Origin: a virus
Taxonomy: Duplodnaviria; Caudoviricetes
IMG/VR virus record: IMGVR_UViG_3300037478_000259
Coordinates: 1-56,306 of that record
Strand: one strand, 5' to 3'
Length of the DNA stretch: 56,306 bases
The notes below the pieces were generated by a model. The model made no database searches and had not been told where the DNA came from. It worked only from the letters and a program-made list of their open reading frames with translations. Made by a program: the position numbers and the translations under genes. This document shows, in pieces, positions 1-56,000 of this stretch; the first letter of the stretch is position 1, and the number at the start of each line of letters is the position of its first letter.

Positions 1-65
1 CCTTCCGCTTAAAAAATCTTGGCCCGGATTGCCCATCTTTCAGGCTGCAGCTGTGAGGTGCCATT

Positions 66-356
66 GTGGACATCCGTAAATCGGTGTTGGCCGATTTGGC
101 GGGTCTGCCGGCTGCGCTACGCAACGGTTCACTGGCGGCATCGGCGCTGACGTTAGCTGAGTTGATCCCGGAGTCGGCACCCAGGGATGCAGCGTCCCTG
201 GTGCGCGAGCTTCGGCAGACCATGGCCGAGCTGAGGTCTAGCGCGGCGCAGGTGCCGGAGGAGGTGGACCCGGTTGACGAACTTGCTCGCCGTCGCGCCG
301 CCCGCCGCTCGGCCAAGGTATCTACACATGCCGACGGGGATCAGCTCGGCAGCTGA
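66..356 (+). CDS. terS: Terminase small subunit (type A)
   Basis: Directly upstream of and overlapping TerL; C-terminal DPVDELARRRAARR typical of actinophage TerS. Confidence 0.75.
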   Translation: MDIRKSVLADLAGLPAALRNGSLAASALTLAELIPESAPRDAASLVRELRQTMAELRSSAAQVPEEVDPVDELARRRAARRSAKVSTHADGDQLGS

Positions 357-1752
357 GGATGTGATCGGGTTAGCCGATAGTGTCAGCCTGGACTTGGATG
401 GCGACCAGCGGATGGTGCTGGCGGGGGCGCTGACCGAGCGGCTGGATGGCATGTGGGCCGCGAACCAGGTTGGGTTCATTGAGCCACGTCAGAATGGGAA
501 GACCCAGACTCTCGCAGCCGACGCCCTTGGTTCGCTGTACGTGGTGAAGCTAAAACTGGTGATGTGGACCGCACACCGGTTCTCCACGGCCATCGAAGCC
601 TGGCGGCTGATGCGGGACATTGTGACCAACTGGGATCATCTGCGTCGACGGGTCCGCGGTGTCCGTCGGACAACCTGGGGTGGCGGGGAGATCGAGTTAC
701 TCGACGGCAACCGGGTCCTGTTCGGGTCGCGGTCTGCTGGTGCGTCGGGGCGAGGGTTCTCGCTTGAGAAGCTGTATCTGGATGAGGCGTTCGACCTGAC
801 CGACGATGACCTGGCGGCGCTGCTGCCGGCGTTGTCGGCTCGGCCGAATCATCAGGTGTGGTATGCCAGCTCGGCGCCGAAGCCGCACAGCGAGGTGTTG
901 CGCAGGGTCTGCCGCGCGGGCCGCCGGGGCGCGCCGGGGATGGCCTACGTTGAGTTCTGCGCGGCCGACGATGCGGCCAGCGATGACCCGGTTGCGTGGG
1001 CCGAGGCGAACCCGGCCTTCCCGCAGAGGATTACCGACGAGACTATTCGTGGGGAACTCGGCTCTATGTCGGATGAGGATTTCCGGCGCGAGCGGTTGGG
1101 CATATGGAATCCTGATCTTGACGAGTTGTATCGGATCATTCCTACCGAGTTGTGGCAGTCGCTGGCAGACCCGGAGGCCGAGCGGCCGGAGACGGTGGCG
1201 TTCGCGCTGGTCGTCAACCGAGACCGGACCCGGACGGCGATCGGGTACGCCGGGCGCCGCGGCGACGGGTTGATGCAGGTTGGCCTGTCGGATTGGATGC
1301 CGGGCACGTCGCAGGCGGTTGCGCGGCTGGTGGAGTTGCGGGATCGGTGGAACCCGGTCGGGTTCGCGGTGGCCACCAAGAGTGAGAGCCTGTTGCTCGA
1401 TCTGGAGAAGGCCGAGTTCACCGTGCCGGATGATCCTGACGAGCCGCAGCGGGGGGATCTGGCCGTGGTGGGTTCGGCTCAGGATGCAGCAGCCTACGGC
1501 GTATTCGTGGACATGGCCCGCGGCGATCTCCAGGGTGAGGAGCGGGTCGATCTGCTCCGGCATGCCGATGATGCGCCGGTGTCTACGGCTTTGGCGCAGG
1601 CGAGGACGCGGTCGGTGGCTGGCGGTTCGGCATGGGACGACAAGGCCAGCGAGGTGGCGCCGCTGCGGGCGGTGTGCCACGCGCTGTGGTTGCACGAGGC
1701 GTGGGCGCATCTGGTGCAGGCCGATTACGACCCGCTGGCCAACATCTACTAG
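274..1752 (+). CDS. terL: Terminase large subunit (type A); start uncertain
   Basis: Walker A PRQNGKT, Walker B LYLDEA, motif III YASSA, WAEANPA, FRRERLG. Confidence 0.92.
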   Translation: MTNLLAVAPPAARPRYLHMPTGISSAAEDVIGLADSVSLDLDGDQRMVLAGALTERLDGMWAANQVGFIEPRQNGKTQTLAADALGSLYVVKLKLVMWTAHRFSTAIEAWRLMRDIVTNWDHLRRRVRGVRRTTWGGGEIELLDGNRVLFGSRSAGASGRGFSLEKLYLDEAFDLTDDDLAALLPALSARPNHQVWYASSAPKPHSEVLRRVCRAGRRGAPGMAYVEFCAADDAASDDPVAWAEANPAFPQRITDETIRGELGSMSDEDFRRERLGIWNPDLDELYRIIPTELWQSLADPEAERPETVAFALVVNRDRTRTAIGYAGRRGDGLMQVGLSDWMPGTSQAVARLVELRDRWNPVGFAVATKSESLLLDLEKAEFTVPDDPDEPQRGDLAVVGSAQDAAAYGVFVDMARGDLQGEERVDLLRHADDAPVSTALAQARTRSVAGGSAWDDKASEVAPLRAVCHALWLHEAWAHLVQADYDPLANIY

Positions 1753-1755
1753 GGG

Positions 1756-2037
1756 GTGCCGATGTCCACGTTCGTGCATGGCATTCCCCGGGCCCGCCAG
1801 GTAACTCGTGCCCGCCGCCGGCTACTGCCGGCGGCAGCCGCGGCCGCCGGGCATGTGCTGCGGCTGTCGGTGCAGGTCGGTGCGCAGTTGCCGGGGTTGG
1901 CTGGTGCCGGCGCGATCTGCTACGGGGCGTGGCTGGCATGGGCTCCACTTGGGTTCGCGACGGCCGGCGCGTTCCTGCTGTTGGTTGACCGCCGGTCGGC
2001 GGCCGAGCCGGCTGAGCCGGGGGGTGTCGCGCGGTGA
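1756..2037 (+). CDS. Small membrane protein between TerL and portal
   Basis: Hydrophobic C-terminal half; homologous ORF at 54340..54621. Confidence 0.75.
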   Translation: MPMSTFVHGIPRARQVTRARRRLLPAAAAAAGHVLRLSVQVGAQLPGLAGAGAICYGAWLAWAPLGFATAGAFLLLVDRRSAAEPAEPGGVAR

Positions 2038-3257
2038 GTGTGTTCTTCCGCGCCCGGACCCGGCCGCGCGCGCCGGAGCAGCGCGCCGGCTGGCCGGTGA
2101 ACCAGTTGTCGCAAGCTCTGCTCTCCCTGACCCGGCAGCAGTTCAACGAGGTTGACCTTTCAACAGCCGAGTCGAGCCTGCAGTCGGTGGCGGTTCGTTC
2201 CGCGGTGGACCTGATCGCGTCGATCGGCTCTGAGCTTCCAGCGGACGTGTTCCGCGGCAAAGGGTCGACCCGGCAGGAGCTGCCGATGCCCGGCTGGCTA
2301 CAGGACCCGGACGGGTCCGACCAGGGCCTGGAGGACTGGTGCTACCGGGTGCTCGTGTCCTGGCTGCTGCGGGGCAACTTGTATGGGGACGTCCTGGAGC
2401 GCGGCCCGGCGCAGATGCTCAAGCAGGTGGACATCTTCCATCCTGACCGGGTGCACCCGTTGATCGAGGACGGCGAGGTGAAGTGGCTGCACCAGGGCCG
2501 GGAAGTTCCGACTAACCGGATGCTGCACCGCCGGGTCAACCCGGTGCCGGGTTGCCTGCTCGGCCTGTCGCCGGTGGCATATCACGCGTGGACGATCGGC
2601 CTGAACTTGACGACCACAAGGTTCGGCCTGCAGTGGTTTCAGGACGGCGCCCACCCGGGCGGGGTGTTGAGGAACACCGAGGTTGACTTGTCGAAGCCGG
2701 GTGTGGCGGAGACGGCCAAGGACCGGTTCATGGCCGCGCTGCGCGGCAGCCGCGAGCCGCTGGTGTTGGGCAAGGGTTGGGAGTGGCAGCAGATCCAACT
2801 CAACCCGGACGAGTCGCAGTTCCTGGAGACACAGGGTTTCACCGCCGCTGAGTCGGCCCGGATCTTCGGGCCGGGGATCGCGGAGATCCTCGGCTACGGC
2901 ACCAAGGGCAGCTCGTTGACCTACAGCAACCTCATCGACCGTGACCTGCACGTCCTCAAGTACGCGCTGAACAAGTGGCTACGCCGGCTGGAGCGGTTGC
3001 TGAGCATGTTCCTGCCGCGGCCGCAGTACGTGCGGTTGAACCGGGATGCGCTGCTGGAGACGGACACCCTGCGCCGCTACCAGGCGTACCAGATCGCCCT
3101 GAACAACAGGTTCAAGGTCGTCAATGAGATCCGCGACAAGGAAGAGCTGCCGCCGGTCGACTGGGGTGACGAGCCGAACCCGACACCGGGTGCCGCTCCG
3201 GCCCCGGCGCCGAGCGACGAGCCGCCGGGCGAGCCTGAGGAAGACGACGACGAGTGA
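2034..3257 (+). CDS. Portal protein (HK97-like)
   Basis: LLRGNLYG, GLSPV, F..GAHPGGVL, SQFLET, NEIRDKEELPP motifs; position. Confidence 0.95.
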   Translation: MSVFFRARTRPRAPEQRAGWPVNQLSQALLSLTRQQFNEVDLSTAESSLQSVAVRSAVDLIASIGSELPADVFRGKGSTRQELPMPGWLQDPDGSDQGLEDWCYRVLVSWLLRGNLYGDVLERGPAQMLKQVDIFHPDRVHPLIEDGEVKWLHQGREVPTNRMLHRRVNPVPGCLLGLSPVAYHAWTIGLNLTTTRFGLQWFQDGAHPGGVLRNTEVDLSKPGVAETAKDRFMAALRGSREPLVLGKGWEWQQIQLNPDESQFLETQGFTAAESARIFGPGIAEILGYGTKGSSLTYSNLIDRDLHVLKYALNKWLRRLERLLSMFLPRPQYVRLNRDALLETDTLRRYQAYQIALNNRFKVVNEIRDKEELPPVDWGDEPNPTPGAAPAPAPSDEPPGEPEEDDDE

Positions 3258-3419
3258 TCGCCGGACGGGGAGTCGAACCCCGCGGCACTGTCGCAACGAC
3301 TGGTACCAGCCACTGCTCAGCCCGCCAGCGGGTCGGAAGTGGGTCCGTCGACCCCCCGCCGTTCACCGCTGTGGATGGTCCCGCCGATACCACTTCGCGG
3401 CAACCACTCACGTCCAGCA
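3258..3419 (-). ncRNA. Putative tRNA-like structured RNA (acceptor stem + T-arm + long internal helices)
   Basis: Minus strand: 5' UGCUGGA pairs with 3' UCCGGCG; T-arm CGGGG-UUCGACU-CCCCG; 10-bp helix UGGUAUCGGC/GCUGGUACCA; G-U pairs work only on the minus strand. Confidence 0.65.
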
Positions 3420-3433
3420 TACGAGGAGGACAA

Positions 3434-4276
3434 GTGATGCGCGCGATGCGTGGCCTGTATGTGATCCGCGGTGGTGGCCCGGCATCACAACTGAACACCC
3501 GACAGGTTCGAGCCGACGAACCCGAGGCCGCAGCCCCGGCCGACGGGCGAGTCGGCACGCTGGTCGTCGACTTCTCCCGATTCGACACCTGGTACGAGAT
3601 CGACTCGTTCTGGGAGGGCCGGTTCATGGAGCAGGTCAAGCGTGGGTCGTTCAAGAAGACGATGAAGGAGAACGGGTCCAACGTCAAGGTCCTGTTCAAC
3701 CACGGCTTCGACATGTTCCTTGACCAGAAGATGCTCAGCGTCCCCGAGGTCCTGGAGGAGCGTGAGAACTTCGCGCACCTGGAGGGGCCGCTGTTCCGCG
3801 GCACCCCGGAGCTGATCGTCGAAGGCCTGCGCGCCGGCGCCTACGGCTCGAGCTTCATGTTCGAGGTGCTGGCCGAGAAGTGGGACCGGGAGGCGGACAA
3901 GTCGGAGGGCAACCCGGACGGCCTGCCTGAGCGGACGATCACCCAGGTCCGACTGTTCGAGGCTGGCCCGGTGACGTGGCCGGCGAACCCGGACGCAACC
4001 GCCGGGCTGCGCTCGGGCACCGACTGGTGGGCCGAGCAGATACAGAAGCGTGATCAGGACCGCTACGACGAGCTTGTCCGCTCGTTCGCAGCGTTCCGGG
4101 CCCTGCACGGGCTCAGCACCCCCACGGGGGCCGCTGCCCGGCCGGGGTCCAAGCCGGAAGCGCCGGCATCCGACATCGGGTCGGACCGCCACGTCGACGG
4201 GACGGCGGCAGCACGCCGCCTTCGCCTGCAGCAACTGCAGGGAGTCGACACGCGGCGGAAGGTTCCGTCGCATTAG
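3434..4276 (+). CDS. Prohead (capsid maturation) protease, HK97 family
   Basis: GAGGAGG RBS before GTG 3434/ATG 3437; LFNHG, GSSF, EAGPVTWPANPDA motifs. Confidence 0.92.
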   Translation: MMRAMRGLYVIRGGGPASQLNTRQVRADEPEAAAPADGRVGTLVVDFSRFDTWYEIDSFWEGRFMEQVKRGSFKKTMKENGSNVKVLFNHGFDMFLDQKMLSVPEVLEERENFAHLEGPLFRGTPELIVEGLRAGAYGSSFMFEVLAEKWDREADKSEGNPDGLPERTITQVRLFEAGPVTWPANPDATAGLRSGTDWWAEQIQKRDQDRYDELVRSFAAFRALHGLSTPTGAAARPGSKPEAPASDIGSDRHVDGTAAARRLRLQQLQGVDTRRKVPSH

Positions 4277-4293
4277 CGGGTTGGAGAACCCCG

Positions 4294-5736
4294 ATGTCAG
4301 TGAAGGTCCAGTTCCGCCTTGCGGAGCTTTCGATGGAGGACGCCGAGAAGCGGCTCACCGAGATCGAAGCAGAGATGAAGGAGATCAACGACGAGGCCGG
4401 CGACGGTGACCTCGACGACGAGCAGCGTGCCACCTGGGATGAGCTCGGCGTCGAGCACGACGAGCTGGCGCTGTCCACCCGCAAGGCCAAGCGGGCGCAG
4501 CGGCTGCAGGACGCCCGGTCGAAGTACCAGAGCCTGCAGGTCGGCACGAAGCGTGAGGACCCGTGGGACGGGGATGTGCGGATCGTGCCCGAGCAGCAGG
4601 CTCTGACCCGGGCGCGCAACATCCTGGACGACCGGGAGCTCGGCGGGCATCTGCGCTCGGATCAGAAGGAGCATCTGGAGAAGCTGTTGCGTACGCGCAA
4701 CGCGAACCTGGATGGTGACCTGCTGGCCCGGCATGTGATCGCCACCCAGCACCCGTCGTACCGGTCGGCGTTCCAGAAGTATGCGTCCGGCTCGCACGCG
4801 TATACCCAGGAGGAGGCTCGGGCGATCGAGGTGGTGCGGCATCTGAACCGTGCTGCGTCGCTGTCCGACACCGCCGGCGGGTTCGCAGTTCCGGTGCTGA
4901 TCGACCCGACGATCATCATGACCGCGCAGGGGTCGACGAACGACATCCTGCGTCTGGCCAGGGTGGAGACCATCACCACCGACGTGTGGAAGGGTGTCAG
5001 CTCGGCCGGGGTGTCGTGGAAGTTCGACACCGAGGCGGCGGCGGCCACGGACAACGCGCCGACGGTCGCGCAGCCGACGGTGACCACGAGGCGGGCTGAC
5101 GGGTTCATCCCGTTCTCGATCGAGATCGGGATGGACTGGCCAGGCTTCGCCGAGTCCATGTCGGGCTTGCTCGCCGAGGGTTACGACGAGTTGCTCGCCG
5201 AGAAGCTCACCACGGGTACGTCGGGCAGCACTGAGCCGACCGGTCTGATCACCCGGCTGGACGCGACCACCACCATCGAGGTGGAGTTGACGACTGCTTC
5301 GACGATCGTGGCTGCGGACATCTACGGTCTGTGGGCGGCGCTGCCGCAGCGGTTCCGCCGGGCCGCGAACTGTGCCTGGATGTCGAGCACCGACGTGCAG
5401 AACACGATCCGGCAGTTGGGTACTCTCGACCCGAACTTCTCCGTGGACATCACCCAAGAGGCCATTCCGAGGATGTTCGGCCGGCAGTACCCGATGAACG
5501 ACTACATGAACGATCTCCCCGCCTCGGGCACCGGCACCCAGCCGTTGCTCGTCGTCGGCGACTTCAGAGGGTATGTGGTCGCACAGCGGGCCGGGATGAT
5601 GGTCGAGTTCATCCCGATGTTGTTCGACACCACCAACAACCGGCCCACCGGCCAGCGCGGCTGGTTTGCCTGGGCGCGGATCGGCGCCGACGTGGTGAAT
5701 ACGGCGGGGTTCCGACTGCTCACCAACAAGGCCTGA
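4294..5736 (+). CDS. Major capsid protein (HK97 fold, N-terminal delta domain)
   Basis: Coiled-coil N-terminus, AGGFAVP, GDFRGYVV, GWFAWARIGADVVN. Confidence 0.93.
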   Translation: MSVKVQFRLAELSMEDAEKRLTEIEAEMKEINDEAGDGDLDDEQRATWDELGVEHDELALSTRKAKRAQRLQDARSKYQSLQVGTKREDPWDGDVRIVPEQQALTRARNILDDRELGGHLRSDQKEHLEKLLRTRNANLDGDLLARHVIATQHPSYRSAFQKYASGSHAYTQEEARAIEVVRHLNRAASLSDTAGGFAVPVLIDPTIIMTAQGSTNDILRLARVETITTDVWKGVSSAGVSWKFDTEAAAATDNAPTVAQPTVTTRRADGFIPFSIEIGMDWPGFAESMSGLLAEGYDELLAEKLTTGTSGSTEPTGLITRLDATTTIEVELTTASTIVAADIYGLWAALPQRFRRAANCAWMSSTDVQNTIRQLGTLDPNFSVDITQEAIPRMFGRQYPMNDYMNDLPASGTGTQPLLVVGDFRGYVVAQRAGMMVEFIPMLFDTTNNRPTGQRGWFAWARIGADVVNTAGFRLLTNKA

Positions 5737-5740
5737 TCTC

Positions 5741-6040
5741 ATGATCTGGCATAAGCCCAAGTGGATCGACAGCGAGACCACGCTGGGTGCATCTGTGGCT
5801 GAAGAGGTGACGGCAAGCCGATACTGCCTTCAGGTGTCCGGCCCGGTGAACGCGGTTGGTTACATCCAAGGATCACTTGACGGCGACAAGTGGGTGATTC
5901 TGGCCAGGGCCGAAGTCACCAATGGGAACTTGCTCACCGAGCTTGTCTGGGTCGAAGGCAATCCCGTCAAGCACATCCGGGCAGTTCTTGCCGCCAATGG
6001 TGGTGGGTCCGTAACCATCAGTGTGCTCGCAACCGACTGA
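5741..6040 (+). CDS. Hypothetical beta-rich protein (possible capsid accessory)
   Basis: Intact ORF immediately after the capsid gene. Confidence 0.6.
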   Translation: MIWHKPKWIDSETTLGASVAEEVTASRYCLQVSGPVNAVGYIQGSLDGDKWVILARAEVTNGNLLTELVWVEGNPVKHIRAVLAANGGGSVTISVLATD

Positions 6041-9987: not shown

Positions 9988-9997
9988 GGCCTGACCC

Positions 9998-12160
9998 GTG
10001 TCGACCGTCGTCCGCCGGCTCGGCAACGCCGACGACATCACGTTTTCCACCGGGCTCGGTGGTGTCGACGCGACGACGTACGGCACGATTGCGGTCCTGT
10101 TCCGGCCGTCCGCAGACACGGTGTTCCGATGGATTGTGAAGCTGTACGACGCGACCGGTGGGGACCTGGGTGGCGTCGGGCTATTGAGCGACGGGACCAT
10201 CTTTTGGAAGGGCGCGAGCACCTGGGCCACCGAGGGGCCGGCTGTCACCTTCGACGACTGGCACTTGCTGGTCGCGCGTAAGGCAACCGGGGATGTACGC
10301 CCTCGGTTCAGTCTGAAAAACATCGCAACAGGCATATGGGTCCATGACGACGCCGTCGACACCCAGTTGGACTGGGTTGCGCCCACGGGTGGCAGCGTCC
10401 GAACCAAGGATGCGACCTCCGGTGAGGGCCCGGGTGCCGACTACGCCGCGGCGGCGATCTGGGCGGACGAGCTGCCTTGGGCGGCTGACACGTTCGGCGA
10501 CGCGGCGATCGAGGCGGCGGCTCTCGACGAGCACTTGGACAACTGGCGGGCCGTAGACCCGGCGTCCGGGTGGGAGTTCTCGCAGTCGGATGCGAACTAC
10601 ATGGTCGAGGACTTCACCCTCAACCGGGCCGATGAGACCAGCTTCGGTGTGGGCACCCCGACCACCGTCACCGACCTTGACTTCGTCTATGCCACCGCCG
10701 GCATCCTCGCCCTGTCGCGGAACTTCCTGCGTGACACCCAGGATGAGCCCGGTGCCAGCGGGATCATCCATGACCTGTCAGAAACCCAAGGCACCCCGAC
10801 CACAATCGGGTCGGGCAGCATCAGCTCCGGATCCTTCATCAAGGTGCTGGAGTTCTGGCGGGTCGTCGACGCGACAGTGGACGCCAGCGTGGCAATCGAC
10901 ACGTCCATTTCCATGGCGGCAGTGTCCGCGGCCACGTTGCGGTACCAGTGGATAGTTCATCGGTACAACAGCTCCGACGTCCTTCAGGAAAGCTCCACGG
11001 CCTCATCCGAGCACAACACCACCGGTGTGAAAACGCAGACCATGGTGCTCGCTGGCCCGTTCGCCGCCGGTGACAAGCTCTCGGTGTCGCTCTGGCTGAA
11101 GAAGGCGGGCGGCGGCGGCTCCCGCAGCTTCACGTTGAACATAAACAATGCTGACTCGTGGGTGGAGTTCTCGGTCGCGGAGACCCCGCCGCTGGAGATA
11201 ACCCCGGCCGCGGTAACGATCGACGCCACACCCGGCACGCTGACCATCACCAGCACGGTCGGCCTCACCCCCGCACCGGTGACCGTCACGGCCACACCAG
11301 GCACGGCGACGATCACAACCACGGCAACGATCACCCCGGCCCCGGTCACAGTGACAGCCACACCGGGTACGGTCGAGGTGGCCACCGAAGGCGGCAGCCA
11401 ACCGGTCACACCAGCCCCGGTCACGGTGACCTGCACCGCGGGCACCCTGACCGTCACAATCGGCGCGGTCAACCTCGTGCCCGACCCGGCGACCATCACC
11501 GCCACACCGGGCACGCTGACCCTGACCGCCACGGTCGACGTCATACCAGATCCGGTCACGGTATCCGCCACCCCGGGCACCTTGGTCCTAACTGCCACAG
11601 CGGATATCGTCCCGGCTGTCGTAGTGGTCGACGCGAGCCCTGGCACCCTGACCGTCACCACCAGCGCGCCAGGCCAGGACATCACCCCGGATCCGGTCAC
11701 GGTGGCCGTCACCGGCGGGATTCTGGCCGTTGGCCAAGGCCTCACCGTTTTCCCGGCAACGATCACCGTCGCAGCCACTCCGGGCGTCTTGACGATGACC
11801 ACCGGCCCCGTAGATATCACCCCGGCCGTGGTGAGCCTCACCGCAACTCCAGGGACGCTGGCCATCGGCCTCGGACTGGACTTGGTCGACGCCAATGTCG
11901 ACGTTGACCCCGGCACACTGACGATCACTGCCGGTTCCGTGGACATCACACCGGCCGCAGTTAGCATCACCGTCACCCCAGGGCTGGTAGTCCTCGCGAT
12001 TCTCGCGCTCGAATTGGACCTGGGCGGCGCGAGCATTGCCGTCACCGCTGGTGCCTTGACCGTTGCCACCGACGAGATCATTCCGGGCACCCTGGTTGCT
12101 ACGGCACCACGCAGCGGCTTGGTTGCTACTGCGCCAACCGCCACCATGGGAGGGAGGTGA
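9998..12160 (+). CDS. Putative head fibre/adhesin: beta-sandwich N-terminal domains + ~13 Thr/Pro-rich repeats
   Basis: Repeats of form ITPAPVTVTATPGTLT from 11198 onward; WHLLVARK segment reminiscent of LamG/ConA lectins. Confidence 0.6.
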   Translation: MSTVVRRLGNADDITFSTGLGGVDATTYGTIAVLFRPSADTVFRWIVKLYDATGGDLGGVGLLSDGTIFWKGASTWATEGPAVTFDDWHLLVARKATGDVRPRFSLKNIATGIWVHDDAVDTQLDWVAPTGGSVRTKDATSGEGPGADYAAAAIWADELPWAADTFGDAAIEAAALDEHLDNWRAVDPASGWEFSQSDANYMVEDFTLNRADETSFGVGTPTTVTDLDFVYATAGILALSRNFLRDTQDEPGASGIIHDLSETQGTPTTIGSGSISSGSFIKVLEFWRVVDATVDASVAIDTSISMAAVSAATLRYQWIVHRYNSSDVLQESSTASSEHNTTGVKTQTMVLAGPFAAGDKLSVSLWLKKAGGGGSRSFTLNINNADSWVEFSVAETPPLEITPAAVTIDATPGTLTITSTVGLTPAPVTVTATPGTATITTTATITPAPVTVTATPGTVEVATEGGSQPVTPAPVTVTCTAGTLTVTIGAVNLVPDPATITATPGTLTLTATVDVIPDPVTVSATPGTLVLTATADIVPAVVVVDASPGTLTVTTSAPGQDITPDPVTVAVTGGILAVGQGLTVFPATITVAATPGVLTMTTGPVDITPAVVSLTATPGTLAIGLGLDLVDANVDVDPGTLTITAGSVDITPAAVSITVTPGLVVLAILALELDLGGASIAVTAGALTVATDEIIPGTLVATAPRSGLVATAPTATMGGR

Positions 12161-15548: not shown

Positions 15549-15686
15549 GATCGCTCGGCAACGCGGCACATCTGCTCGGGATACGACCATGGGAGTGGGA
15601 ACTACTCACCGTCGACGAAGCCGACCAGCTGCTGGACTGGCTCGATCGGTATGAGGCCGAGATGAAGAGGGTGGGGTGAGCATCCC

Positions 15687-17618
15687 ATGGCGTCGGATGT
15701 GAGCCTCATTTTTAACCTGTTGGCTCGGGATAAGGCTTCCGGGACGATCGGCAAGGTTGAGAAGAACGTCGGCCGGATGGGCGTGGCTATCGTCGGCATG
15801 GGTGTGGCCGCCGGCGCCGGGCTGGTCGCCGTCGGCGACACGATGGATGAGGTGTTCGACACCATCCGCGTGGGTACCGGTGCCACTGGCCCGGCCCTGG
15901 ACGGACTGAAAACGTCGTTCAAAAACGTGGCTGGCACGGTGTCCGCGGACCTGACCGAAACCGGGTCGGTGCTCGCCGACTTCAACACGATGACCGGTGC
16001 GACCGGTGAGCATCTCGAGGGCCTGACCAAGACGTTCCTTGACCTGGAGAAGATCACCGGCGAGGACCTGCAGGTAGAAAACGTCACCCGGCTGTTCGGC
16101 GACTGGGGCGTTGCCGCCAAAGACCAGGTGTCCACCATGGATGAGCTGTTCAGGGTCAGCCAGACCACAGGGATCGGCATCGGCGACCTGACCAGCAAGG
16201 TTGTGCAGTTCGGTGCGCCGCTGCGGAACATGGGGTTCACCCTCGACGAGTCGGTTGCGTTGTTCGGGAAGTGGCAGAAAGAAGGCGTCAACACCGAGAC
16301 GGTGATGGCCGGGCTGCGTAAAGCATCCGGGACGTGGGCCAAGGAAGGTCTCGACCTGCCGGACATGCTGGGTGAGACGATCGCGGCGATTCAGGGTGCC
16401 GGGTCGGAGGCCGAGGCGCAGGCGATTGCCATGGAAAACTTCGGTGCGAAGGCCGGTCCGGACATGGCCGCGGCGATCCTGGAGGGCCGGTTCGAGATCG
16501 ACGACCTGATGGCCACCTTGGATTCCAACGAGGACACGATCACTGGCCTGGCTGACGAGACCGACTCCTGGAAGGAGAACCTGGCCAAGCTGAAGAACGA
16601 GGGTCTGGTTGCCCTGGAGCCGATCGCATCGACCGTGTTCGGGCTGCTCGGTGAGGGTGTGCCGATCCTGCGCAATGTTGGCACGTGGACGCAGAACAAC
16701 GCCGGGTTGGTCAAGAACCTGGCGATCGCGCTGGGTGGTATCGCCGCGGTGATTCTGGCCGTGAACGTCGGGTTGAAGGTGTACCACGGGATTCAGATGG
16801 TCATCCGCGCGGCGACGATCGTGTGGACCGCGATCAACTGGCTACTGGCGGCATCGGTGTGGGCGTCGCTGGGTCCGATCCTGCTGATAGCCGTGGCAAT
16901 CGCCGCGGTGATCGCCATCATCGTGCTTATCGCCACCAAGACCGACTGGTTCCAACGGTTGTGGGGCTGGGCGTGGGGTGGTATCAAGGCGGCGGCGCTG
17001 TTCGTGTGGAACTGGATCAAGAACACGCTTTGGCCAGGAATCAAGTCGGTGTGGAACGGGATCGTGGCCGGCGCGAAAATGGTCTGGCGCGGCATCCAGG
17101 TCTACTTCGGCTTCTGGAGGGGACTGTTCACCAGGGTCGTCGGCTGGGCGATCGGCGCGAAGGACCGGATCGTGAACGGGTTCAACAAGGTAGTCGGCTT
17201 CGTGAAGGGCCTGCCGGGGCGGATCAGCTCGGCGGCCCGCGGCTTGTTCGACGGGATCAAGAACGCTTTCCGTAGCGCCGTGAACTGGCTGATCTCCAAG
17301 TGGAACAACCTGTCGTTCACCCTGGGCGGCGGGTCGGTGATGGGGATCAACATCCCGTCGATCACCCTGTCCACACCGAACATCCCGTACCTCGCCGCGG
17401 GTGGCATCGTGACCCGGCCGACCCTGGCGGTGGTGGGTGAGCGCGGGCCGGAGGCGGTGGTGCCGCTCTCCCGCGGTGGTGGCGCGGCTGGGGTTGGTGG
17501 CCCGTCGGTGATCCACGTGCATGTCGATGGGTCGCGCGCGGCAAGGCTACTGGCTGAGTTGCTGCGGGAGGCGTTGCGGACGAACCCGGCGCTGCGGGCG
17601 GAGGTGCGGGCGGCGTGA
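15687..17618 (+). CDS. Tape measure protein
   Basis: Ala/Gly-rich helical protein, hydrophobic stretch, Trp-periodic repeats, LAAGGIVTRPTLAVVGERGPEAVVPL. Confidence 0.93.
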   Translation: MASDVSLIFNLLARDKASGTIGKVEKNVGRMGVAIVGMGVAAGAGLVAVGDTMDEVFDTIRVGTGATGPALDGLKTSFKNVAGTVSADLTETGSVLADFNTMTGATGEHLEGLTKTFLDLEKITGEDLQVENVTRLFGDWGVAAKDQVSTMDELFRVSQTTGIGIGDLTSKVVQFGAPLRNMGFTLDESVALFGKWQKEGVNTETVMAGLRKASGTWAKEGLDLPDMLGETIAAIQGAGSEAEAQAIAMENFGAKAGPDMAAAILEGRFEIDDLMATLDSNEDTITGLADETDSWKENLAKLKNEGLVALEPIASTVFGLLGEGVPILRNVGTWTQNNAGLVKNLAIALGGIAAVILAVNVGLKVYHGIQMVIRAATIVWTAINWLLAASVWASLGPILLIAVAIAAVIAIIVLIATKTDWFQRLWGWAWGGIKAAALFVWNWIKNTLWPGIKSVWNGIVAGAKMVWRGIQVYFGFWRGLFTRVVGWAIGAKDRIVNGFNKVVGFVKGLPGRISSAARGLFDGIKNAFRSAVNWLISKWNNLSFTLGGGSVMGINIPSITLSTPNIPYLAAGGIVTRPTLAVVGERGPEAVVPLSRGGGAAGVGGPSVIHVHVDGSRAARLLAELLREALRTNPALRAEVRAA

Positions 17619-29818: not shown

Positions 29819-30122
29819 CCCTCTGCGCTCCGTGATCTACGTGCCGTCCGGTCTCGAGCTGCACCGCTGGCTGGCCATCTGCGCGGAAACCGTGGAGCTC
29901 CACGGCTGGGACCTGACCGCCGTCGTCCGCCACTGGTCCGACGTGCGGCAGCTGCTGCATGCCGGGCTGCTCGACCTGCTGGTCGTCGGCCACCCCGGCC
30001 ACCTTGACCCGCAGCGGATCCCGCGGGTGGTCATCGCCGGCGACCCGCCGCTGCCGCTGGCCACCGAGCTCCGGCCGGAGCAGCGGCGGCCGGTCATCCG
30101 GCCAGGTCCGGCAGGCCGTTGA
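29811..30122 (+). CDS. Hypothetical protein (weak resolvase-fold resemblance)
   Basis: Coupled to RHH gene; convergent with and overlapping the integrase 3' end. Confidence 0.5.
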   Translation: MGDPLRSVIYVPSGLELHRWLAICAETVELHGWDLTAVVRHWSDVRQLLHAGLLDLLVVGHPGHLDPQRIPRVVIAGDPPLPLATELRPEQRRPVIRPGPAGR

Positions 30123-30906
30123 CCGCGGCGGTCAGCGCGGCCGGCGGCACCAAGGTGTACACCTGCGTCGTCGTCGGTGACGCATGCCCCAGCAGCTCCT
30201 GCACGGTGCGCAGGTTCGCCCCGCCGCCCAGTGCCGCGGTGGCATGCCAGCCGCGGAGCCGGTGCAGCCCGCCGGTCAGCCGGAGCCGGCGCAGCTCGTA
30301 CCGGCCGCGGTCGGAGATCCGCTTCGCGCCGGCGCCACCGGCCAGCAACCCGGCGGGCAGGTCGACCACCGCGGCCCACACCAGCGGGTGGCAGGGCACA
30401 GTCCGCTCCTTGGAGCCTTTGCCGTCCAGCCGGACGCTGGTCTGGGTGATGTCCTCGCGTCGTAGCCGGGAGATCTCGACGCAGCGGGCGCCGGTGTACG
30501 CGGCCAGCAGCGCCCACAGCCGCACCGGCGGGTCGGCGCGGGTCAGGATCCTGTGGGTCTCCTCGTCGGTGGCGGGCCGAGGCAGCCGGCGGGGGATGCG
30601 CACCGGGGGCAGCCGGGCACTGGGGTCGAAGTCTGAGTAGTCCCGGTCGACCAGCCACTTGTGCAGGCTGCGCAGGGCGGCACGGTAGGTGGAGCGGGTC
30701 GCCGGCGCCCAGTCGCGGGAGGTGAGCCACGCCCGGAGCTCGGCGGTCGTGGCGACGACCACACCGGCGGGCAGGTGATGGTGGGCCATGCGCAGCGCGG
30801 TGGTGTAGGTGGCGACAGTGCCGGCCGCTGCCGTATGTACCAGGTCTGCCAGGTACTCCTCGAGCAGATCCGAGTGCATCAGATCAGAGTGTGCGGTGAC
30901 GGTCAC
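30094..30906 (-). CDS. int: Tyrosine integrase (short, no arm-binding domain evident)
   Basis: YTGARCVEI, GKGSKER, HRLR, VQELLGHASPTTTQVY. Confidence 0.93.
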   Translation of the reverse strand: MTVTAHSDLMHSDLLEEYLADLVHTAAAGTVATYTTALRMAHHHLPAGVVVATTAELRAWLTSRDWAPATRSTYRAALRSLHKWLVDRDYSDFDPSARLPPVRIPRRLPRPATDEETHRILTRADPPVRLWALLAAYTGARCVEISRLRREDITQTSVRLDGKGSKERTVPCHPLVWAAVVDLPAGLLAGGAGAKRISDRGRYELRRLRLTGGLHRLRGWHATAALGGGANLRTVQELLGHASPTTTQVYTLVPPAALTAAVNGLPDLAG

Positions 30907-31394
30907 GTGCTGCTACCGGAGTGGGTGTGGCCGGTGATGGCCGGCCGGCGGAGCTCCGCCGGGGTTGTGCCGGACGTAGCGGACGCGGGTCGGCTGGTCG
31001 GGTGGCGGCCGCCGGCATGCCCGGGGGCGAGTAGCACCCGTTGGGACCGCGGCCCGGTCGCCCGGACGGGTGGTGTCGCATACGTCTTGTTAAGCGTGCG
31101 GCGGCGTGTGATGGTGCGCGGGCCGCGCCGTTCGGGCTGGGCGAGCGGGCCGCCCCAGCTCAGCCAGTCCCGGTCGATCCCCAAACCCTCGCTGATCGCC
31201 TCGACGGTGGCCGGGAAGTCGCGCGGGTTTCCGCCGTGCTCCCAGTTGATCCAGTTCTCTCGCGTCAGCCCACACCGCTCAGCCGCCTGCGTGGCGGTCA
31301 GGTTCCCACCGTGCAGGCGGACCAGCATCAGCCGCGCCGCGAAGGTGTCGGTTGGGATGGCTCCCCGGGTGGGCGCATCAACCGCTGTCTCCAT
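30903..31394 (-). CDS. Immunity repressor (XRE HTH) with long low-complexity C-terminal tail
   Basis: TQAAERCGLTRENWINWEHG HTH; divergent from Cro-like gene; GTGA overlap with int. Confidence 0.8.
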   Translation of the reverse strand: METAVDAPTRGAIPTDTFAARLMLVRLHGGNLTATQAAERCGLTRENWINWEHGGNPRDFPATVEAISEGLGIDRDWLSWGGPLAQPERRGPRTITRRRTLNKTYATPPVRATGPRSQRVLLAPGHAGGRHPTSRPASATSGTTPAELRRPAITGHTHSGSST

Positions 31395-45971: not shown

Positions 45972-46358
45972 ATGAGCCTGCCGTGGGTCCGGCTGGACAC
46001 CACGATGCCCGACCACCCCAAAATCATCCAACTCGTCGACGACTACAAAGACGGCCGCGGCACCGCATTCATCTACATCTGCTCGATGGCCTACGCCGGC
46101 CGCCACGGCACCGACGGGTTCATACCCAAAGGTGCGCTCGCCCGCATCGGCGGCCGCCCCGTCGACGCCGACCGGCTCGTCCAGGTCGGACTATGGCACA
46201 AGGAAGGAACCGGATGGGTCATCCACGGCTGGGCCGAGTACCAGCAGACCAACGAGGAGACTCAAGAGCGCCGACGGAAGATCGAGGAGTTGTCACGAAA
46301 AGGCAACTGCGTACGGTGGCACGGCGAAGACTGCGGATGCTGGCGGGAGTCCCCATGA
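45972..46358 (+). CDS. Replication initiator-like N-terminal domain protein
   Basis: PWVRLD...HPKI...HGTDGFIP...WVIHGWAEYQ pattern of actinophage initiators. Confidence 0.6.
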   Translation: MSLPWVRLDTTMPDHPKIIQLVDDYKDGRGTAFIYICSMAYAGRHGTDGFIPKGALARIGGRPVDADRLVQVGLWHKEGTGWVIHGWAEYQQTNEETQERRRKIEELSRKGNCVRWHGEDCGCWRESP

Positions 46359-46391
46359 CCTATCCCCACGGGAGTCCCGCACGGGAGTCCC
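46344..46391 (+). repeat. Three copies of CGGGAGTCCC (iteron-like)
   Basis: Exact copies at 46344, 46369, 46382. Confidence 0.7.
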
Positions 46392-48133
46392 GGCCTGCGA
46401 ATCCTACGAGACGTGACGTGACGGGACTAACGGAGAAGTTACTCACCCACCGCAGCCATGGGTCAAGCACCGTACCGCGCACACGCGTACGTCGGCACGC
46501 CGCTACGCGGCCGCCGAACCACCCCGACCGCATCGCCGCCAAGGGTTATCCACAGCCACCCCGACCCTGCCGCTCGGAGCGGCTCGCCAGAACGGAGCCC
46601 ACATGACCGCCACCGCCGTCGCCGAGTTGTGCGGCACCTGGTGGCCCGCCGCCGACTGCCTTGGCCGGCGCAACCACCGCTGCACCCGCCCGCCCGGCCA
46701 CCGCGGCCGCTGCACCTGCCACTGCGGCAACCGGCGACCACTGCCCACCCCGAAGGAGACACCATGACCAACCACCTCGCAGACGAGCTCCGCGAAATCG
46801 ACCGCGAACTCGACCACGACCCCTGTGGCTACGTCGAGATCACCACACGTGAGCGGCTAAGGGCGCTGATCGCGCACGTGGAACGGCTCCACGCCGAGCC
46901 GGAACCGGCCACCGAGCTCACCGCCTCCGGCCTGGACCCGGAGCAAGAGATCCGGGCCCGGGCGTTGGACGCCGTGGCCCGACTCTTCACAGGCGCCCCG
47001 CCGACCATGTTCGGCGCGACCGAGTTGGCCGAGGACTTCGCCGGCTACATCCGCAGGGGCCGGCCATGACCACCACACCACCACCGGCCACACCCGCCGA
47101 CGCCCTGCGCTGGGCCGCCGAGCGCGCTGAGGGGCTGCTGCTGTCAACCGTCAGCGTGCGGGGGTTGCGCCGCTGGGCCGACGAGTTGGACGCCGCCCCG
47201 GCCGACCAGCCTGAGACGGAGCTGACCATGGCTGAGCCGACGATCCACCGCTACCAGGTCCCGGTCGACGACCAGTGGTACACGCTGTCGCTGTCCGGCG
47301 CCGTGCTACACGTCGCCGCCCGCGACCCGGCGGTGGTTGAGCTGTGGGCACTGGTCGGCATCGAGCTGCCCCGCTGGTGGGAGTTCCGGGTCTTCAGCAC
47401 CGGACAGCCGCTGCCGGCCTGGTGCGGCGAGCATGTCGGTACCACGCTGGCAGACGGAGGCCGGTTTGTCTGGCACCTGTTCCGTCGGGAGGGCCACCAT
47501 GGCTGAGCGCCGCTGGGCCGACGAGCACGACTGCACCTGCCCCACCGTCGGTGCCGGGTACGCCTCGGACTGCCCCACCCACGGCACCGCCACCACCGGC
47601 GTGGCATCCGGTGACGGTGTGGCCGGACCACAGGTCACCATCGAGGAGAGATCATGAGAGTCCTTATCGAGATCGACGCCGGCGAGCGTCAGGCGACGTT
47701 CATCCGCGAACCGCTGTACGTCACCATCTCCGACAACCCGTCTGACGTCATGCTCGACCAACTCGTCGGCGCCTTCGGTGAGGCACGTGAATGGCTGGAG
47801 CGCGGCACCCCACCCATGGAGGCCACAGATGAGCACTGAGCGGACCACCAAGTGGGTTGTGACCGTCACACCCACCATCCAAGACGGGCAGGTCGTGCGC
47901 TGGTATCGCACCCTGGTCGCCGCCGAGAACGACCTGGAAACCATGTCCGCGTCCCGTAACGGGGTGCTGGTCAAGGGCTTCCTGCACGAGGTCCCGGCGA
48001 CGCTGTTGGCCATCGCTGAGGACATCCGTCGCGGTCTGGCCGCCGGCTGGGACGCGTCGCATGCTGCCACCCACCGGCGAACCCGGCTGTTCGGCGGCGG
48101 CCTGGAGCCAATCGTTCCGCCAGGAGGCCGTCG

Positions 48134-49357
48134 ATGAGCACTGAGCAGAACCCCAACTGGCATGTCACCGCCTGCGTCCACCACCCGATCACCGCAGCGC
48201 AGGCGGATGGGCTGTTCGACACGCTGGCCGACGCGGCGCACGGCTGGGAGCCGGCCGGGATGGATGTGGACGTGTCCGGCGGGCCGTGCTACTGCCGGGA
48301 GTCGCCGGCCGCTGTGGCCCGGGTGGTAGACGCGGCGCGGGAGGTGGCCCGGGTGCTGCGGCCGGCGGTCTCGCGGCCGAGCAGGGCCCTCGTCGCCGCC
48401 GTGGACGCGCTCGACACCGACGCCGACCCGGTGGTCGGCACCCGCCCACCCTGGCAGGTGCACGACGGGCCGCCACCCACCCACGGCACACCAGCCGCAG
48501 AGCCGGCAGCCGGCCCTGGCTGGGACCAGGACACCATCGCCGACCTGGCCCGCTGCCTGCGCACCTTCGGCTACGCACCGCTGACCCCGGGTGCTGGCAT
48601 GGTCGCCGACCAGCTTGACGCCCTGCTTGCCGACCGGGACCGACTCGGGCGGATGGTCGAGGCTATGACGGCCACCATCCGTGCCGTGCCCGACTCTCAT
48701 AGCGCCGCCAACTTGGCTCACGCCCGTGCGGAGCGGAACCGGCTCCGCACCGAGGTGGCCGAGGTGACCGCAGACCGGGACCGGCTGCGGCAGCGGCTGG
48801 CCGACAGCATCGACCCCGCCAACATCCCCGACCAGCGGGCCAAGAACTGGCCCGACTGGCACCCAGAGAAGTACTGCCACCGCTGTGGACGGCCCAACAT
48901 CAACTGGTACGCGGACTCGGCGATCTGGAACGAGGTCCACGGCGGCTCCGGGCCGATCTGGTGCCCGGCGTGCTTCGCCCGCGCCTACGAGCAGACCACC
49001 GCCCGGCGGGTCTCCTGGCGGCTGGCGCCGGTTGAAAAGTCGGATCAGTTAGGTCACCTGATCCGCTCGGAGGCCGCGATGCGGCACGAGCGGGACTCCG
49101 CCCGCGCCGAGCTGTCCACCGCCCGCCGCGACGCCGCCGCCGACGCGCTACTCATGGTCCGCCGACGATTCGAAGAGAGCACTACCGACGGCAACATCGA
49201 CACCGGATGGTGGCTGATGTGGCTGGAGGCGTGGGCCGCCGAGGTCCGCACCGGGCAGCGCACCATCAGCCCTCAATCGGCCACCACTCCAGATGACCTG
49301 CCGGAGTGGGAACGGGACATCGTATTTCCGGCGACCGACACCACGGAGGAGCCATGA
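48134..49357 (+). CDS. Mosaic hypothetical protein
   Basis: Long coupled ORF with coiled-coil and CxxC segments. Confidence 0.55.
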   Translation: MSTEQNPNWHVTACVHHPITAAQADGLFDTLADAAHGWEPAGMDVDVSGGPCYCRESPAAVARVVDAAREVARVLRPAVSRPSRALVAAVDALDTDADPVVGTRPPWQVHDGPPPTHGTPAAEPAAGPGWDQDTIADLARCLRTFGYAPLTPGAGMVADQLDALLADRDRLGRMVEAMTATIRAVPDSHSAANLAHARAERNRLRTEVAEVTADRDRLRQRLADSIDPANIPDQRAKNWPDWHPEKYCHRCGRPNINWYADSAIWNEVHGGSGPIWCPACFARAYEQTTARRVSWRLAPVEKSDQLGHLIRSEAAMRHERDSARAELSTARRDAAADALLMVRRRFEESTTDGNIDTGWWLMWLEAWAAEVRTGQRTISPQSATTPDDLPEWERDIVFPATDTTEEP

Positions 49358-49619
49358 CCGACCTTGAGCGTCACGTCCGCCGCGCCGCCCTGGTCGCCGC
49401 GGTCGCCCGCCGGTACCGGGCCCGGCAGCTACGGCGCATGAGCGTCGGCTGGTGGTGCCGGCATGGATGAGCACGACACCGACACAGAGGAGGGCTGAAT
49501 GGGACAGCGCAGAGGACCACAGGACGACACGTTCATGGCGCAGTTCGGTTCGTGGATACCGCTGGCGGTGTTCTCCGTGATCGTGTTCGCGGTGTTGTGG
49601 ATCGTGGGGAGTTGCATCG

Positions 49620-50438
49620 ATGGCTGATTGCGCGATCTGTACCGAGCCGATCACCGACACCGCCTATGTCTGCCCTCGGGATGCCCTGCGCCTCGAAGGC
49701 CGACTCAAGGCCGCCTCCGGGCTGTGGCCCTACGTCGTGGACACCGTGGCCAAGCAGACCCGCACCGGCGATCCCACCCCGCGCGCGGGCAAGCCTGCGC
49801 CGGCAGAGTCGCCGCGTGCGGGTGGCACCGACGCCGACTGCCAGGCGCTCGGCTGGCCCACCGGACTGGTCGTCGACCTGGCCGCGGCTGAGACCCGCGA
49901 CGCCGCACGCAACACGCTGACCACATGGGCCCGGGTGCTGGCCGACGAGCTCGGTGCCGACCCGCCAACCCGGCTCGACCCGCTCACCCGGTGGACAGCC
50001 GACCAACTCGGCTGGGCACGCTACCGGCAGTGGGCCGGTGAGGCCTGGGGCGAGCTGGACTACGCGTGCACCCTGCTGTGGCGGCTGGTGGACAGTCGTA
50101 CCGGGCGCCGCTACCTTGGGCCGTGCGACGCAGGCGGGTGTGTGACCGACCTGTACGCCCGGCTGGGCGCCGAGCAGGCCACCTGCCCAGGATGCGGGCG
50201 CAGGCACAGCGTCAAGGACCGCATGGACTGGCTGGCCATGCTGGTGCAGGGCTACACCTACACCGCGAAGGAGATCTCCGACGCGTACCCGCAGATCCGC
50301 GCCGACCGGATCCGCAAGTGGGCCAGCCGCGGGCAACTCGCCAACCGCGGCGACCAGACCCGTCCGTTGTATTCGCTGCGGGATGTGCTCGCCCTAGCCG
50401 AGCGGATGGACCGACGCGCCGCACGACAGTCGGTATGA
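49620..50438 (+). CDS. Zn-ribbon + HTH protein (possible late regulator)
   Basis: CAIC, LGPC..C, CPGCG, TAKEIS...DRIRKWASRG; position before the packaging module. Confidence 0.65.
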   Translation: MADCAICTEPITDTAYVCPRDALRLEGRLKAASGLWPYVVDTVAKQTRTGDPTPRAGKPAPAESPRAGGTDADCQALGWPTGLVVDLAAAETRDAARNTLTTWARVLADELGADPPTRLDPLTRWTADQLGWARYRQWAGEAWGELDYACTLLWRLVDSRTGRRYLGPCDAGGCVTDLYARLGAEQATCPGCGRRHSVKDRMDWLAMLVQGYTYTAKEISDAYPQIRADRIRKWASRGQLANRGDQTRPLYSLRDVLALAERMDRRAARQSV

Positions 50439-51514: not shown

Positions 51515-51633
51515 GTCACCCAACGTGACATGCATCGGTGCATGAGTCCCGGTATGTCCGATTCTAAGACGATCAAGGGCAGCGGACCACCCCGCCACCT
51601 TTCGTCGAGCCGTACCGGTATCGGAGATCATTT

Positions 51634-54336: not shown

Positions 54337-54339
54337 GGG

Positions 54340-55838: not shown

Positions 55839-56000
55839 TCGCCGGACGGGGAGTCGAACCCCGCGGCACTGTCGCAACGACTGGTACCAGCCACTGCTCA
55901 GCCCGCCAGCGGGTCGGAAGTGGGTCCGTCGACCCCCCGCCGTTCACCGCTGTGGATGGTCCCGCCGATACCACTTCGCGGCAACCACTCACGTCCAGCA
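55839..56000 (-). ncRNA. Putative tRNA-like structured RNA (copy 2)
   Basis: Identical by eye to 3258..3419. Confidence 0.65.

Follow-up and report, generated by a model that had tools for sequence, protein, structure and literature searches.

The 56,306-base viral contig IMGVR_UViG_3300037478_000259, analysed over its whole length and called the window here, carries two sets of genes for the small (TerS) and large (TerL) terminase subunits, each upstream of a portal gene, and the two large subunits, TerL-A and TerL-B, end in the same ten residues, ADYDPLANIY. As the best overall explanation, which we hold with reasonable though not full confidence, we propose that the window is a composite of two related phages, that these phages differ by the swap of a packaging cassette, and that the shared tail is the portal-docking peptide of TerL.

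The similarity between the two copies begins abruptly inside the TerL genes. Tail and stop codon occupy 1720-1752 (+) in the A copy, where the DNA homology with the B copy begins, and 54304-54336 (+) in the B copy, with the recombination joint at 54296-54304. A blastn comparison of 1-6000 with 50001-56306 gave a single high-scoring segment pair (HSP), 1720-3728 against 54304-56306 with 92.9% identity over 2012 columns, and nothing upstream of it; the initial annotation, made from the letters alone, had thus correctly described both the common ending and the sudden onset of similarity leading into the portals. In the pairwise DNA alignment the change from unalignable to near-identical falls at GCCGA(T/C)TAC, the codons of ADY. 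The B copy tracks its nearest relative in the B family, the IMG/VR locus L012, up to ..TGGATTCTCCA and then, from GCCGA, the A copy. Convergent origin of the two tails is ruled out by their DNA, which is identical save for one synonymous base. The search for further TerLs with this ending, which the annotation had suggested, was run with a degenerate DNA pattern for DYDPL[AD]NI[YWF]-stop and found 13 IMG/VR stretches, in all 13 of which the tail lies upstream of a portal of the window lineage (51-97% identical, the comparison for L090 covering the first 59 portal residues only). The TerL bodies of these loci range down to 26% identity with TerL-A, and only the L001 contig has one of B type. 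Because the same tail accompanies the same portal lineage in 13 of 13 stretches, the junction is not a product of chance. Moreover, the B junction is real and was seen independently. L001, an independent 33.8 kb IMG/VR contig from another metagenome, has the same junction at 99.87% DNA identity over 4718 bases and encodes HNH-B, TerS-B, TerL-B and portal B at 100% amino acid identity. We also compared the Logan contigs of four sediment-metagenome runs, X1 to X4, over 46000-56306, with depth given as one figure per contig; in X2 the B module and portal B stand at an even depth of 114-172 (51589-56306), and one contig (53691-54333) crosses the joint, reaching only 29-30 letters past 54304.

Upstream of the tail the two TerLs are only distantly alike. 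TerL-A has 492 amino acids from a TTG start (474 in the source gene call; 274-1752, body 274-1719, +) and the Walker A motif PRQNGKT, and TerL-B has 540 amino acids (52714-54336, body 52714-54303, +) and the Walker A motif ATGDGKT. In a BLASTP comparison of the two proteins the sole significant HSP is C-terminal and covers only the last 27 residues (13/27 identities, E 2e-4), all others having E >= 0.78. Profile-profile alignment (hhalign) nevertheless pairs the Walker A motifs and runs colinearly from A41-471 to B69-527, with a probability of 92%, E 5.7e-7 and 16% identity over 416 columns. Both proteins match phrog_9 (TerL-A at 1e-39 over residues 13-473, TerL-B at 2.5e-51), and the HK97 large terminase structure 6z6d is the best solved relative of both family profiles. 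The TerL-A profile hits 6z6d at 4.4e-14 and matches the ATPase regions of 6z6d, T4 gp17 and the herpesvirus terminase, with Pfam Terminase_6N right on the cut-off; TerL-B matches the Pfam family TerL_nuclease (PF20441) at 3.2e-9, and its AlphaFold2 (AF2) model (mean predicted local distance difference test score, pLDDT, 89.3) has 6z6d as the top Foldseek match (E 1.7e-30). An ASCE ATPase with Walker A is thus present in both, and a nuclease domain in a two-domain fold is indicated for TerL-B by PF20441, AF2 and Foldseek and for TerL-A by phrog_9 and the colinearity with TerL-B. Since both belong to phrog_9, share 6z6d as the best structural match and align colinearly as profiles, TerL-A and TerL-B are deeply diverged lineages of one HK97-like family. 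The initial description of the pairs as apparently unrelated was therefore too strong for the TerLs, but its statement that they do not align beyond generic motifs except for the tail stands, as does the outcome of the alignment check that it had called for, by which they are not close homologues over their full length. The TerL-A body, ATPase and nuclease, represents a rare, divergent lineage of HK97-like large terminases, whose nearest database relatives show <=57% identity over the full length. The TerL-B body, likewise HK97-like, belongs to a lineage that is common among actinophages, with 871 relatives at E <= 0.001, those among the 120 listed being 65-94% identical.

As to the small subunits, the candidate TerS-A (96 amino acids, 66-356, +) is placed by position only. 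It matches phrog_6975 of 'unknown function' (E 1.7e-5) and no Pfam family, and has homologues upstream of the A-type TerL in L009 and L096. TerS-B (170 amino acids, 52275-52787, +) is of the P27/Terminase_4 type, as had been noted at the outset (PF05119 at 7.8e-6, phrog_83 at 6.1e-13), and tblastn finds a homologue in 74 of the fetched loci. No similarity between TerS-B and the positional candidate TerS-A emerged in the searches run.

Two observations on relatives of TerL-A stand beside these comparisons. Protein P0123 is 84% identical to TerL-A over just 57% of the query and unrelated in its C-terminal part, which seems to indicate mosaicism within the TerL body too. Five A-family relatives of about 800 amino acids (P0145, P0172, P0183, P0222 and P0233) carry PF05204 and four of them also PF14528, which we take to be intein or homing-endonuclease domains and which would suggest inteins inside their terminase genes.

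In the AF2 model of TerL-B residues 532-540 have pLDDT <50 and follow the last long helix (515-527), and the hhalign match ends at A476/B529; the extreme C-terminus thus lies outside the nuclease fold, as a portal-docking tail would, and the last ~10 residues are modelled as a flexible extension beyond it.

The distribution of the tail gives a direction to the exchange. A portal scan returned nine IMG/VR loci and one locus in a metagenome-assembled genome of the Jiangellaceae, the latter a single distant locus (53% identity, from the scan of genome contigs) that offers a hint of the host. Nine of these ten loci have an A-type TerL (29-63% identical to TerL-A) next to portals that are 53-97% identical, and only L001 is of B type. 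The tails of the A-type portal relatives are of the DYD type (DYDPLANIY, DYDPLANIF, EYDPVGQVF, DYDPVGQIF, DYAPEDQIF and DYDPEQDLW), kept in A-type relatives whose TerL bodies are just 26-63% identical. In L012, which has the nearest B body (94% amino acid identity; 93.9% DNA identity over window positions 51598-54296), the DNA match breaks off at 54296, 8 bases short of the A-type homology, the tail is EVPVQVREVWAAWQ, and the adjoining portal has no BLAST match of >=200 columns to the window portal. By these comparisons the tail is native to the A lineage and its portal, and the B cassette, made up of the HNH gene, TerS-B and the TerL-B body, is the incomer; the event is therefore best understood as the entry of a B-type cassette into an A-type backbone.

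The limits of this cassette can be drawn on both sides. On the left it begins at the stop of a gene for 121 amino acids (~50864), DNA similarity ending at 50859 with L001 and at 50872 with L003, and on the right it ends inside TerL, ten codons before the stop. Its A form comprises a small HNH gene, cos-proximal DNA, TerS-A and the TerL-A body, and its B form other DNA, an HNH/endonuclease-VII-like gene, the P27-like TerS-B and the TerL-B body. The small HNH endonuclease of the A-type packaging set (92 amino acids, 51236-51514, +; phrog_338 HNH, 6.2e-5) has homologues in the A-type loci L003/L093, L006/L087, L005, L089 and L096 and a weak one (45%) in the B-family locus L043; none turned up in the L001 contig, where 379 unrelated bases stand instead. 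The HNH/endonuclease-VII-like gene (213 amino acids, 51634-52275, +; phrog_1035 at 1.2e-6, Pfam HNH_5 weak and below cut-off), the first of the B cassette, is 100% identical at the amino acid level in L001 and L012. These limits, together with the TerS-B homologues in the fetched loci, argue that the set for DNA recognition and cutting moved as a unit, so that the exchanged unit is the whole apparatus of DNA recognition and cleavage, while the tail stays in place with the head genes. The cassette-swap reading is well supported by sequence comparison. In the initial annotation the packaging motor had been swapped as a cassette and the tail kept with the portal; comparative covariation, described below, bears this out, and a portal-docking role of the tail is supported by these statistics and by analogy with model phages. 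The further idea of the initial annotation, that such a swap could help to evade satellites or terminase-sensing defences such as Avs, is speculative.

An observation of its own concerns the HNH/endonuclease-VII-like gene. In the A-type loci a homologue with 57-62% amino acid identity (L004:2148-2705 and L007:2064-2624) is flanked by the small membrane gene on one side and the portal on the other; in the B type the gene stands upstream of TerS instead. From these positions it appears to move by itself, like a homing endonuclease.

If the tail docks on the portal, its type should follow the portal and not the TerL body. Among the 120 B-family proteins listed the body is conserved to ..MCMGVWVLHEVPE and is followed by discrete tail types. 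Tail and downstream portal were extracted from 76 B-family loci, of which 58 were analysed; left out were ten loci without a portal by the open reading frame (ORF) filter, L083-L086 as too distant or frameshifted, L011 and L001 as duplicate B copy, and four without the body/tail motif. Over the 1653 pairs of the 58 loci, tail similarity correlates with portal identity when body identity is controlled (partial Spearman 0.42, 0/2000 permutations), and shows no such relation to body identity when the portal is controlled (-0.04, 1558/2000 permutations, partial Mantel). The tail types fall by portal cluster: a large Phage_portal cluster of 38 loci has tails of a proline followed by two hydrophobic residues (PFFAAWR, PLVAWR, PWVMYG, PFALWGD), the supercluster that includes the window portal (19 loci) has DYD-type and ..QQIW tails, a third Phage_portal cluster (6 loci) G.LFG tails, a portal family without Pfam match (5 loci) RPxxRLxx tails, and the Mu-type PF06074 portals (3 loci) ..xGF tails, the TerL of the third of these, L083, being frameshifted. 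On a FastTree phylogeny of 190 B-family bodies without their tails, six tail classes on 167 labelled rows require at least 17 changes, and the DYD class by itself, with six rows, at least five; 1000 shuffles of the labels averaged 38 changes and never gave fewer than 35. Tail exchange has therefore been recurrent.

The A family has a like repertoire of tails (PMVAWR, PFALMGD, PMAAYA, MFRPGQRLKL and DYD types), and in 11 non-redundant loci among 80 of this family the portal shares at least 45% identity with one that is linked to a B-family TerL. The tails of these 11 score on average 13.1 against the matched B tails, as opposed to 5.4 for random ones (1/5000 permutations). Specificity thus tracks the portal and not the body, as would be expected of a docking tail, by statistical and comparative evidence, and that the tail behaves as a portal-matching element is supported by these comparisons. 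We infer that it binds the portal. A complex prediction with two portal copies (residues 1-375) and residues 300-492 of TerL-A reached a score of 0.00, where the threshold mark is 0.32, and bears neither way. More generally, HK97-like TerLs might take their last 8-15 residues from a limited stock of transferable 'address' peptides, one for every portal lineage (sublineages of Phage_portal, the Mu-type and the family without Pfam match), and evolution might repeatedly have re-targeted a terminase body, or fitted a new terminase to an existing portal, by exchange of the tail only; for this wider proposal we see the scales as evenly balanced.

Several points weigh against a portal-docking role of the tail. 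The support for binding is statistical and comparative; the tail classes were set by regular expressions of our own, which leave 23 of 190 rows as 'other'; the portal filter failed at 10 of the 76 loci, and the motif step cost four more. The outcome of the cross-family test depends on a small number of strong pairs (L178, L160 and L157), L119 and L145 scoring at or below random. Finally, covariation cannot separate the portal from co-inherited genes of the head module, and a membrane gene intervenes between TerL and portal in nearly all loci of the lineage.

As regards the unity of the window, the base at which it appears to be joined is marked from several sides. The A-type genome has its left end, probably the physical cos left end, at 1-65 (+), starting with CCTTCCG upstream of the TerS-A candidate. 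The cos-proximal segment of the right end (51546-51597, +), which is probably shared by the A- and B-type phages of the sample, ends in ..GGACCACCCCGCCA (51584-51597), and the left end of the B-type genome follows directly (51598-51633, +) with CCTTTCGTCGAG.., making 51597/51598 the proposed cos junction and a probable chimeric join. A-type relatives that cross cos read ..CCGCCA|CCTTCCG.. (L003 and L007, with L004 similar), which matches window positions 51584-51597 joined to 1-8; because the relatives match both window ends, the A genome is taken to close from 51597 to 1. L003 shares the right-end segment to ~51602, the first base of the L012 contig is the homologue of 51598, and a B-module contig of X1 begins exactly at 51598, so that window, L012 and X1 have starts at homologous bases, as far as contigs were compared. 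The window matches L001 at 92.4% over 49487-50859 and at 99.87% from 51589 onwards to its end, with no similarity in between (50859-51589). The small HNH gene ends 83 bases before the proposed right end, and 36 bases separate the proposed B left end from the start of the HNH/endonuclease-VII-like gene, so that HNH genes stand beside the terminase genes and the genome end as in cos-type packaging modules. From this agreement of sequences we infer that 51597/51598 is the cos cut.

Contig starts in the wider B family point the same way: 15 of 66 end-cut IMG/VR loci start with CCT (~1 expected by chance), and these starts look like physical left ends. The contigs are L012, L015, L018-L020, L023, L027, L029, L032, L047, L052, L055, L062, L065 and L068. 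In many independent B-family contigs a GGTACC-like motif follows 12-16 bases after the CCT start; the two together look like a conserved cos left end, with a possible TerS or cosB site, and could serve to call complete genomes.

Sequencing depth in the four runs changes at the same place. In X1, the best-matching run (95% of query words, no differences), the listed contigs stop at 51575 with a depth of ~330-540 and resume at 51598, where the depth falls from 328 to 24.6 (~15-fold); it stays at 20-35 over 51598-54255 and is <=2 after 54600. X2 shows the opposite step, from 13.8 (50830-51364) to 149 at 51589 and 114-172 from there to the window end. A joint from 50872 to 51546 that skips the small HNH is found in one contig each of X1 (depth 16.9) and X2 (14.7), X2 has in addition an L001-like joint from 50859 to 51589, and in X3 and X4 coverage is fragmentary, the fragments differing from the window at many positions. 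None of the four runs has even depth across 51597. The X1 and X2 depths and the identity switch of L001 at 51589 are thus not those of two terminase sets on one molecule at equal depth, and the two pairs most likely do not belong to one genome. Because the depth drop, the L001 identity switch, the contig starts and the cos junctions of the relatives coincide near 51597, the window is probably a composite, a complete A-type genome (1-51597) running into the left end of a co-occurring B-type phage.

Against a composite it must be said that it is read from Logan contigs and not from raw reads, that the shorter side of the 50872-51546 joint has just 30 letters, and that no contig closing 51597 to 1 was seen among the Logan contigs. 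A real minor B-type variant that shares the right arm at 100% identity could also account for the data. X1 is nearly without the portal-B-like sequence, at 97% likeness, that 54600-56306 would call for; an A-like portal region may follow the B module there, which would amount to a cassette polymorphism on one backbone.

That the window is instead a true single molecule, a hetero-concatemer or a tandem of two related phages, is rather unlikely in our view. The assembly gave a single contig, L001 is an example of a contig that crosses cos, and the cohesive ends of the two phages may be alike, both left ends reading CCTT and the right-end segment being apparently shared. Yet the ~15-fold drop at 51575/51598 in X1, the second drop after 54600, the lack of even depth across 51597 in every run and the low-depth joint (16.9) that bypasses the small HNH all speak against it. 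A tandem integrated prophage is ruled out by the integrase in mid-contig, the absence of host genes and of tRNA genes and the contig start at a cos-homologous base. Only a very remote chance is left for the B junction being an assembly chimera of a B-type terminase and an A-type portal region, which the initial annotation had named as a possible refutation; the source is metagenomic, but L001 comes from another metagenome and the X2 contig carries the joint at the even depth of the B module.

With the B junction taken as real, the tail might still have been carried along neutrally, the breakpoint ten codons before the stop being set by conserved DNA homology on the portal side and the tail having no portal-specific role. 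The DNA resolves a single recent event in this lineage, and tail-portal binding is supported comparatively and not directly, both of which leave room for such hitch-hiking. We consider it improbable, however, because the tail keeps 8-9 of 9 residues where TerL bodies are 26-40% and portals 51-58% identical, because the same pairing of discrete tail types with portal clusters is found repeatedly in two TerL lineages, one of which has undergone at least 17 switches, and because deletion of the TerL C-terminus abolishes binding to the portal or prohead in P22, T3 and lambda (PMC5290284, PMC13595956). It is conceivable in principle that the tail docks on another product of the head module, such as the 93-residue membrane protein, the protease or the capsid protein. 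The small gene between TerL and portal in seven new tail-pattern loci, L001-L007, L009 and L010 would fit such a partner, and covariation cannot tell linked genes apart. But in the main Phage_portal cluster, with only ~140-260 bases from the TerL stop to the portal frame, the same association is seen, and in four model phages experiments have established the portal as the partner, which makes a different one quite improbable.

Combining the composite window, the cassette swap and the docking tail, we suggest the following course of events. Window positions ~1-51597 would be the complete linear genome of a temperate, cos-type actinophage, and the two terminase sets would belong to a pair of related phages from soil or sediment, present together in one sample or in sister samples. 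The abundant A-type and the rarer B-type phage would share the last ~50 bases before cos, where the assembler would have crossed from one to the other, and the final 2 kb of the window would come from an L001-like variant. On backbones otherwise 92-93% identical the set for DNA recognition and DNA cutting would have been replaced, while the ADYDPLANIY tail, as the portal-docking peptide of TerL, would have remained on the portal side. DNA would be packaged only by recombinants in which tail and portal are still combined, so that viable cassette swaps would break just upstream of the tail.

The remaining content of the window is that of a temperate tailed phage. It is the sole contig of its genome, has a G+C content of 68%, and its two ends gave zero megablast matches against 50,697 GenBank phage records; a tRNA scan of the window found none, and in a direct-repeat search of the window no att-like repeat was conspicuous. 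Gene order is the virion order: terminase, portal, protease, capsid, tail, integrase, early genes and small HNH, followed by the second packaging set of HNH/endonuclease-VII-like gene, TerS-B, TerL-B, membrane gene, portal and protease start. Between TerL and portal the A copy encodes a small predicted membrane protein (93 amino acids, 1756-2037, +; phrog_502 'membrane protein', E 4.4e-5), whose homologues lie at the same place in L001-L007, L009, L010 and seven new tail-pattern loci, no match being reported at L008; judged by this distribution it is apparently inherited together with the portal. Portal A (407 amino acids, 2034-3257, +; Pfam Phage_portal PF04860, 1.1e-47) is 97% identical at the amino acid level to the L001 portal, which equals portal B at 100%. 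It is followed by the head maturation protease (3254-4276, +; phrog_80, 1.1e-22) and the major capsid protein (4294-5736, +; phrog_10, 2.8e-38). Further along are a tape measure gene (15666-17618, by library match), the integrase (30094-30912, -) in mid-contig, and genes for a tail fibre, an anti-repressor, a RecE-like exonuclease and a RusA-like resolvase. The last conserved gene of the right arm is that for 121 amino acids (50499-50864, +), whose product has 95.5% amino acid identity in L001 (B type) and L003 (A type) alike. The B copies of the small membrane gene (54340-54621, +), the portal (54618-55838, +) and the protease gene start (55835-, +, cut off at the window end) form the segment 54340-56306, which has 99.87% DNA identity to L001.

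Some side observations on these genes may be added. Window positions 3218-3436 and 55799-56017 are 100% identical over 219 bases, covering the portal end and the protease start, in surroundings of 83-99% identity per 100 bases; recent gene conversion or collapse of the assembly graph could account for this. Both portals end (3150-3257, 55740-55838) in a proline-rich and then strongly acidic stretch (..EPEEDDDE), the most variable part between the copies. At L023, L037 (~1279 codons, open-ended), L041 (806) and L048 (839) the portal frames run into longer ORFs, which may be portals fused to a downstream head protein. Three diverged 36-base repeats, ~135-141 bases apart, lie at 11402-11713 in the ORF 9995-12160 (721 amino acids, without PHROG match) and could derive from domain repeats in a tail or decoration protein.

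What do these results mean beyond the window? They provide a natural, base-resolved example of where a swap of the packaging enzyme breaks and yet leaves a working phage. If matching of tail and portal is general, it would explain how terminase and portal trees can be discordant despite the need for virion assembly, provide a sequence rule to predict which terminase fits which head, and define the minimal change for hybrid packaging systems in model phages; and if the 'address' peptides are true, terminase-portal compatibility would be readable and re-programmable through ~10 residues. The window also calls for caution, as metagenomic viral contigs can cross cos into a co-occurring relative and so mimic duplicated modules. 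A literature search, with subscription journals and supplements outside its reach, brought up reviews and structures on C-terminal portal binding and none on a covariation code of tail and portal. The principle is known from lambda, T3 and P22, and what may be new is the natural example at base level across distant TerLs together with the recurrent matching of tails to portals, Phage_portal, Mu-type and unassigned ones alike.

Docking of the TerL C-terminus on the portal has been established experimentally in lambda, T3, P22 and SPP1 (PMC13595956). P22 TerL without residues 483-499 does not bind to procapsid-form portal (PMC5290284), and in the HK97 motor map, a portal-terminase complex at 7.4 A, the tail-portal contact is unresolved as far as the available text of PMC10359639 goes. 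The P22 tail resembles the one described here in being an extreme C-terminal extension that lies past the nuclease domain and is conserved among phages of one portal lineage, but it is basic and proline-rich whereas DYDPLANIY is acidic and aromatic, and the portal families differ. HK97 provides the best solved relative of both TerLs, 6z6d, and the same order of HNH, cos, TerS, TerL, portal, protease and capsid, although identity is <=21%. An HNH protein has a role in HK97 cos cleavage. The closest parallel in principle is lambda gpA: Frackman, Siegele and Feiss in 1984 and Yeo and Feiss in 1995, working with lambda/21 hybrids, reportedly placed a prohead or portal specificity domain at its C-terminus. 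As in gpA, a short C-terminal TerL segment would set the prohead or portal here and the remainder, with TerS, the DNA specificity; different from gpA, the chimera is a natural one in high-GC actinophage-like contigs, resolved to ~8 bases between TerLs that are 16% identical, and known from its sequence alone. Casjens and Thuman-Commike in 2011 are said, as cited in PMC13595956, to have found mosaic boundaries of tailed phages at regions of protein-protein interaction, and the joint described here would be like these in that surviving joints lie where co-adapted partners stay together.

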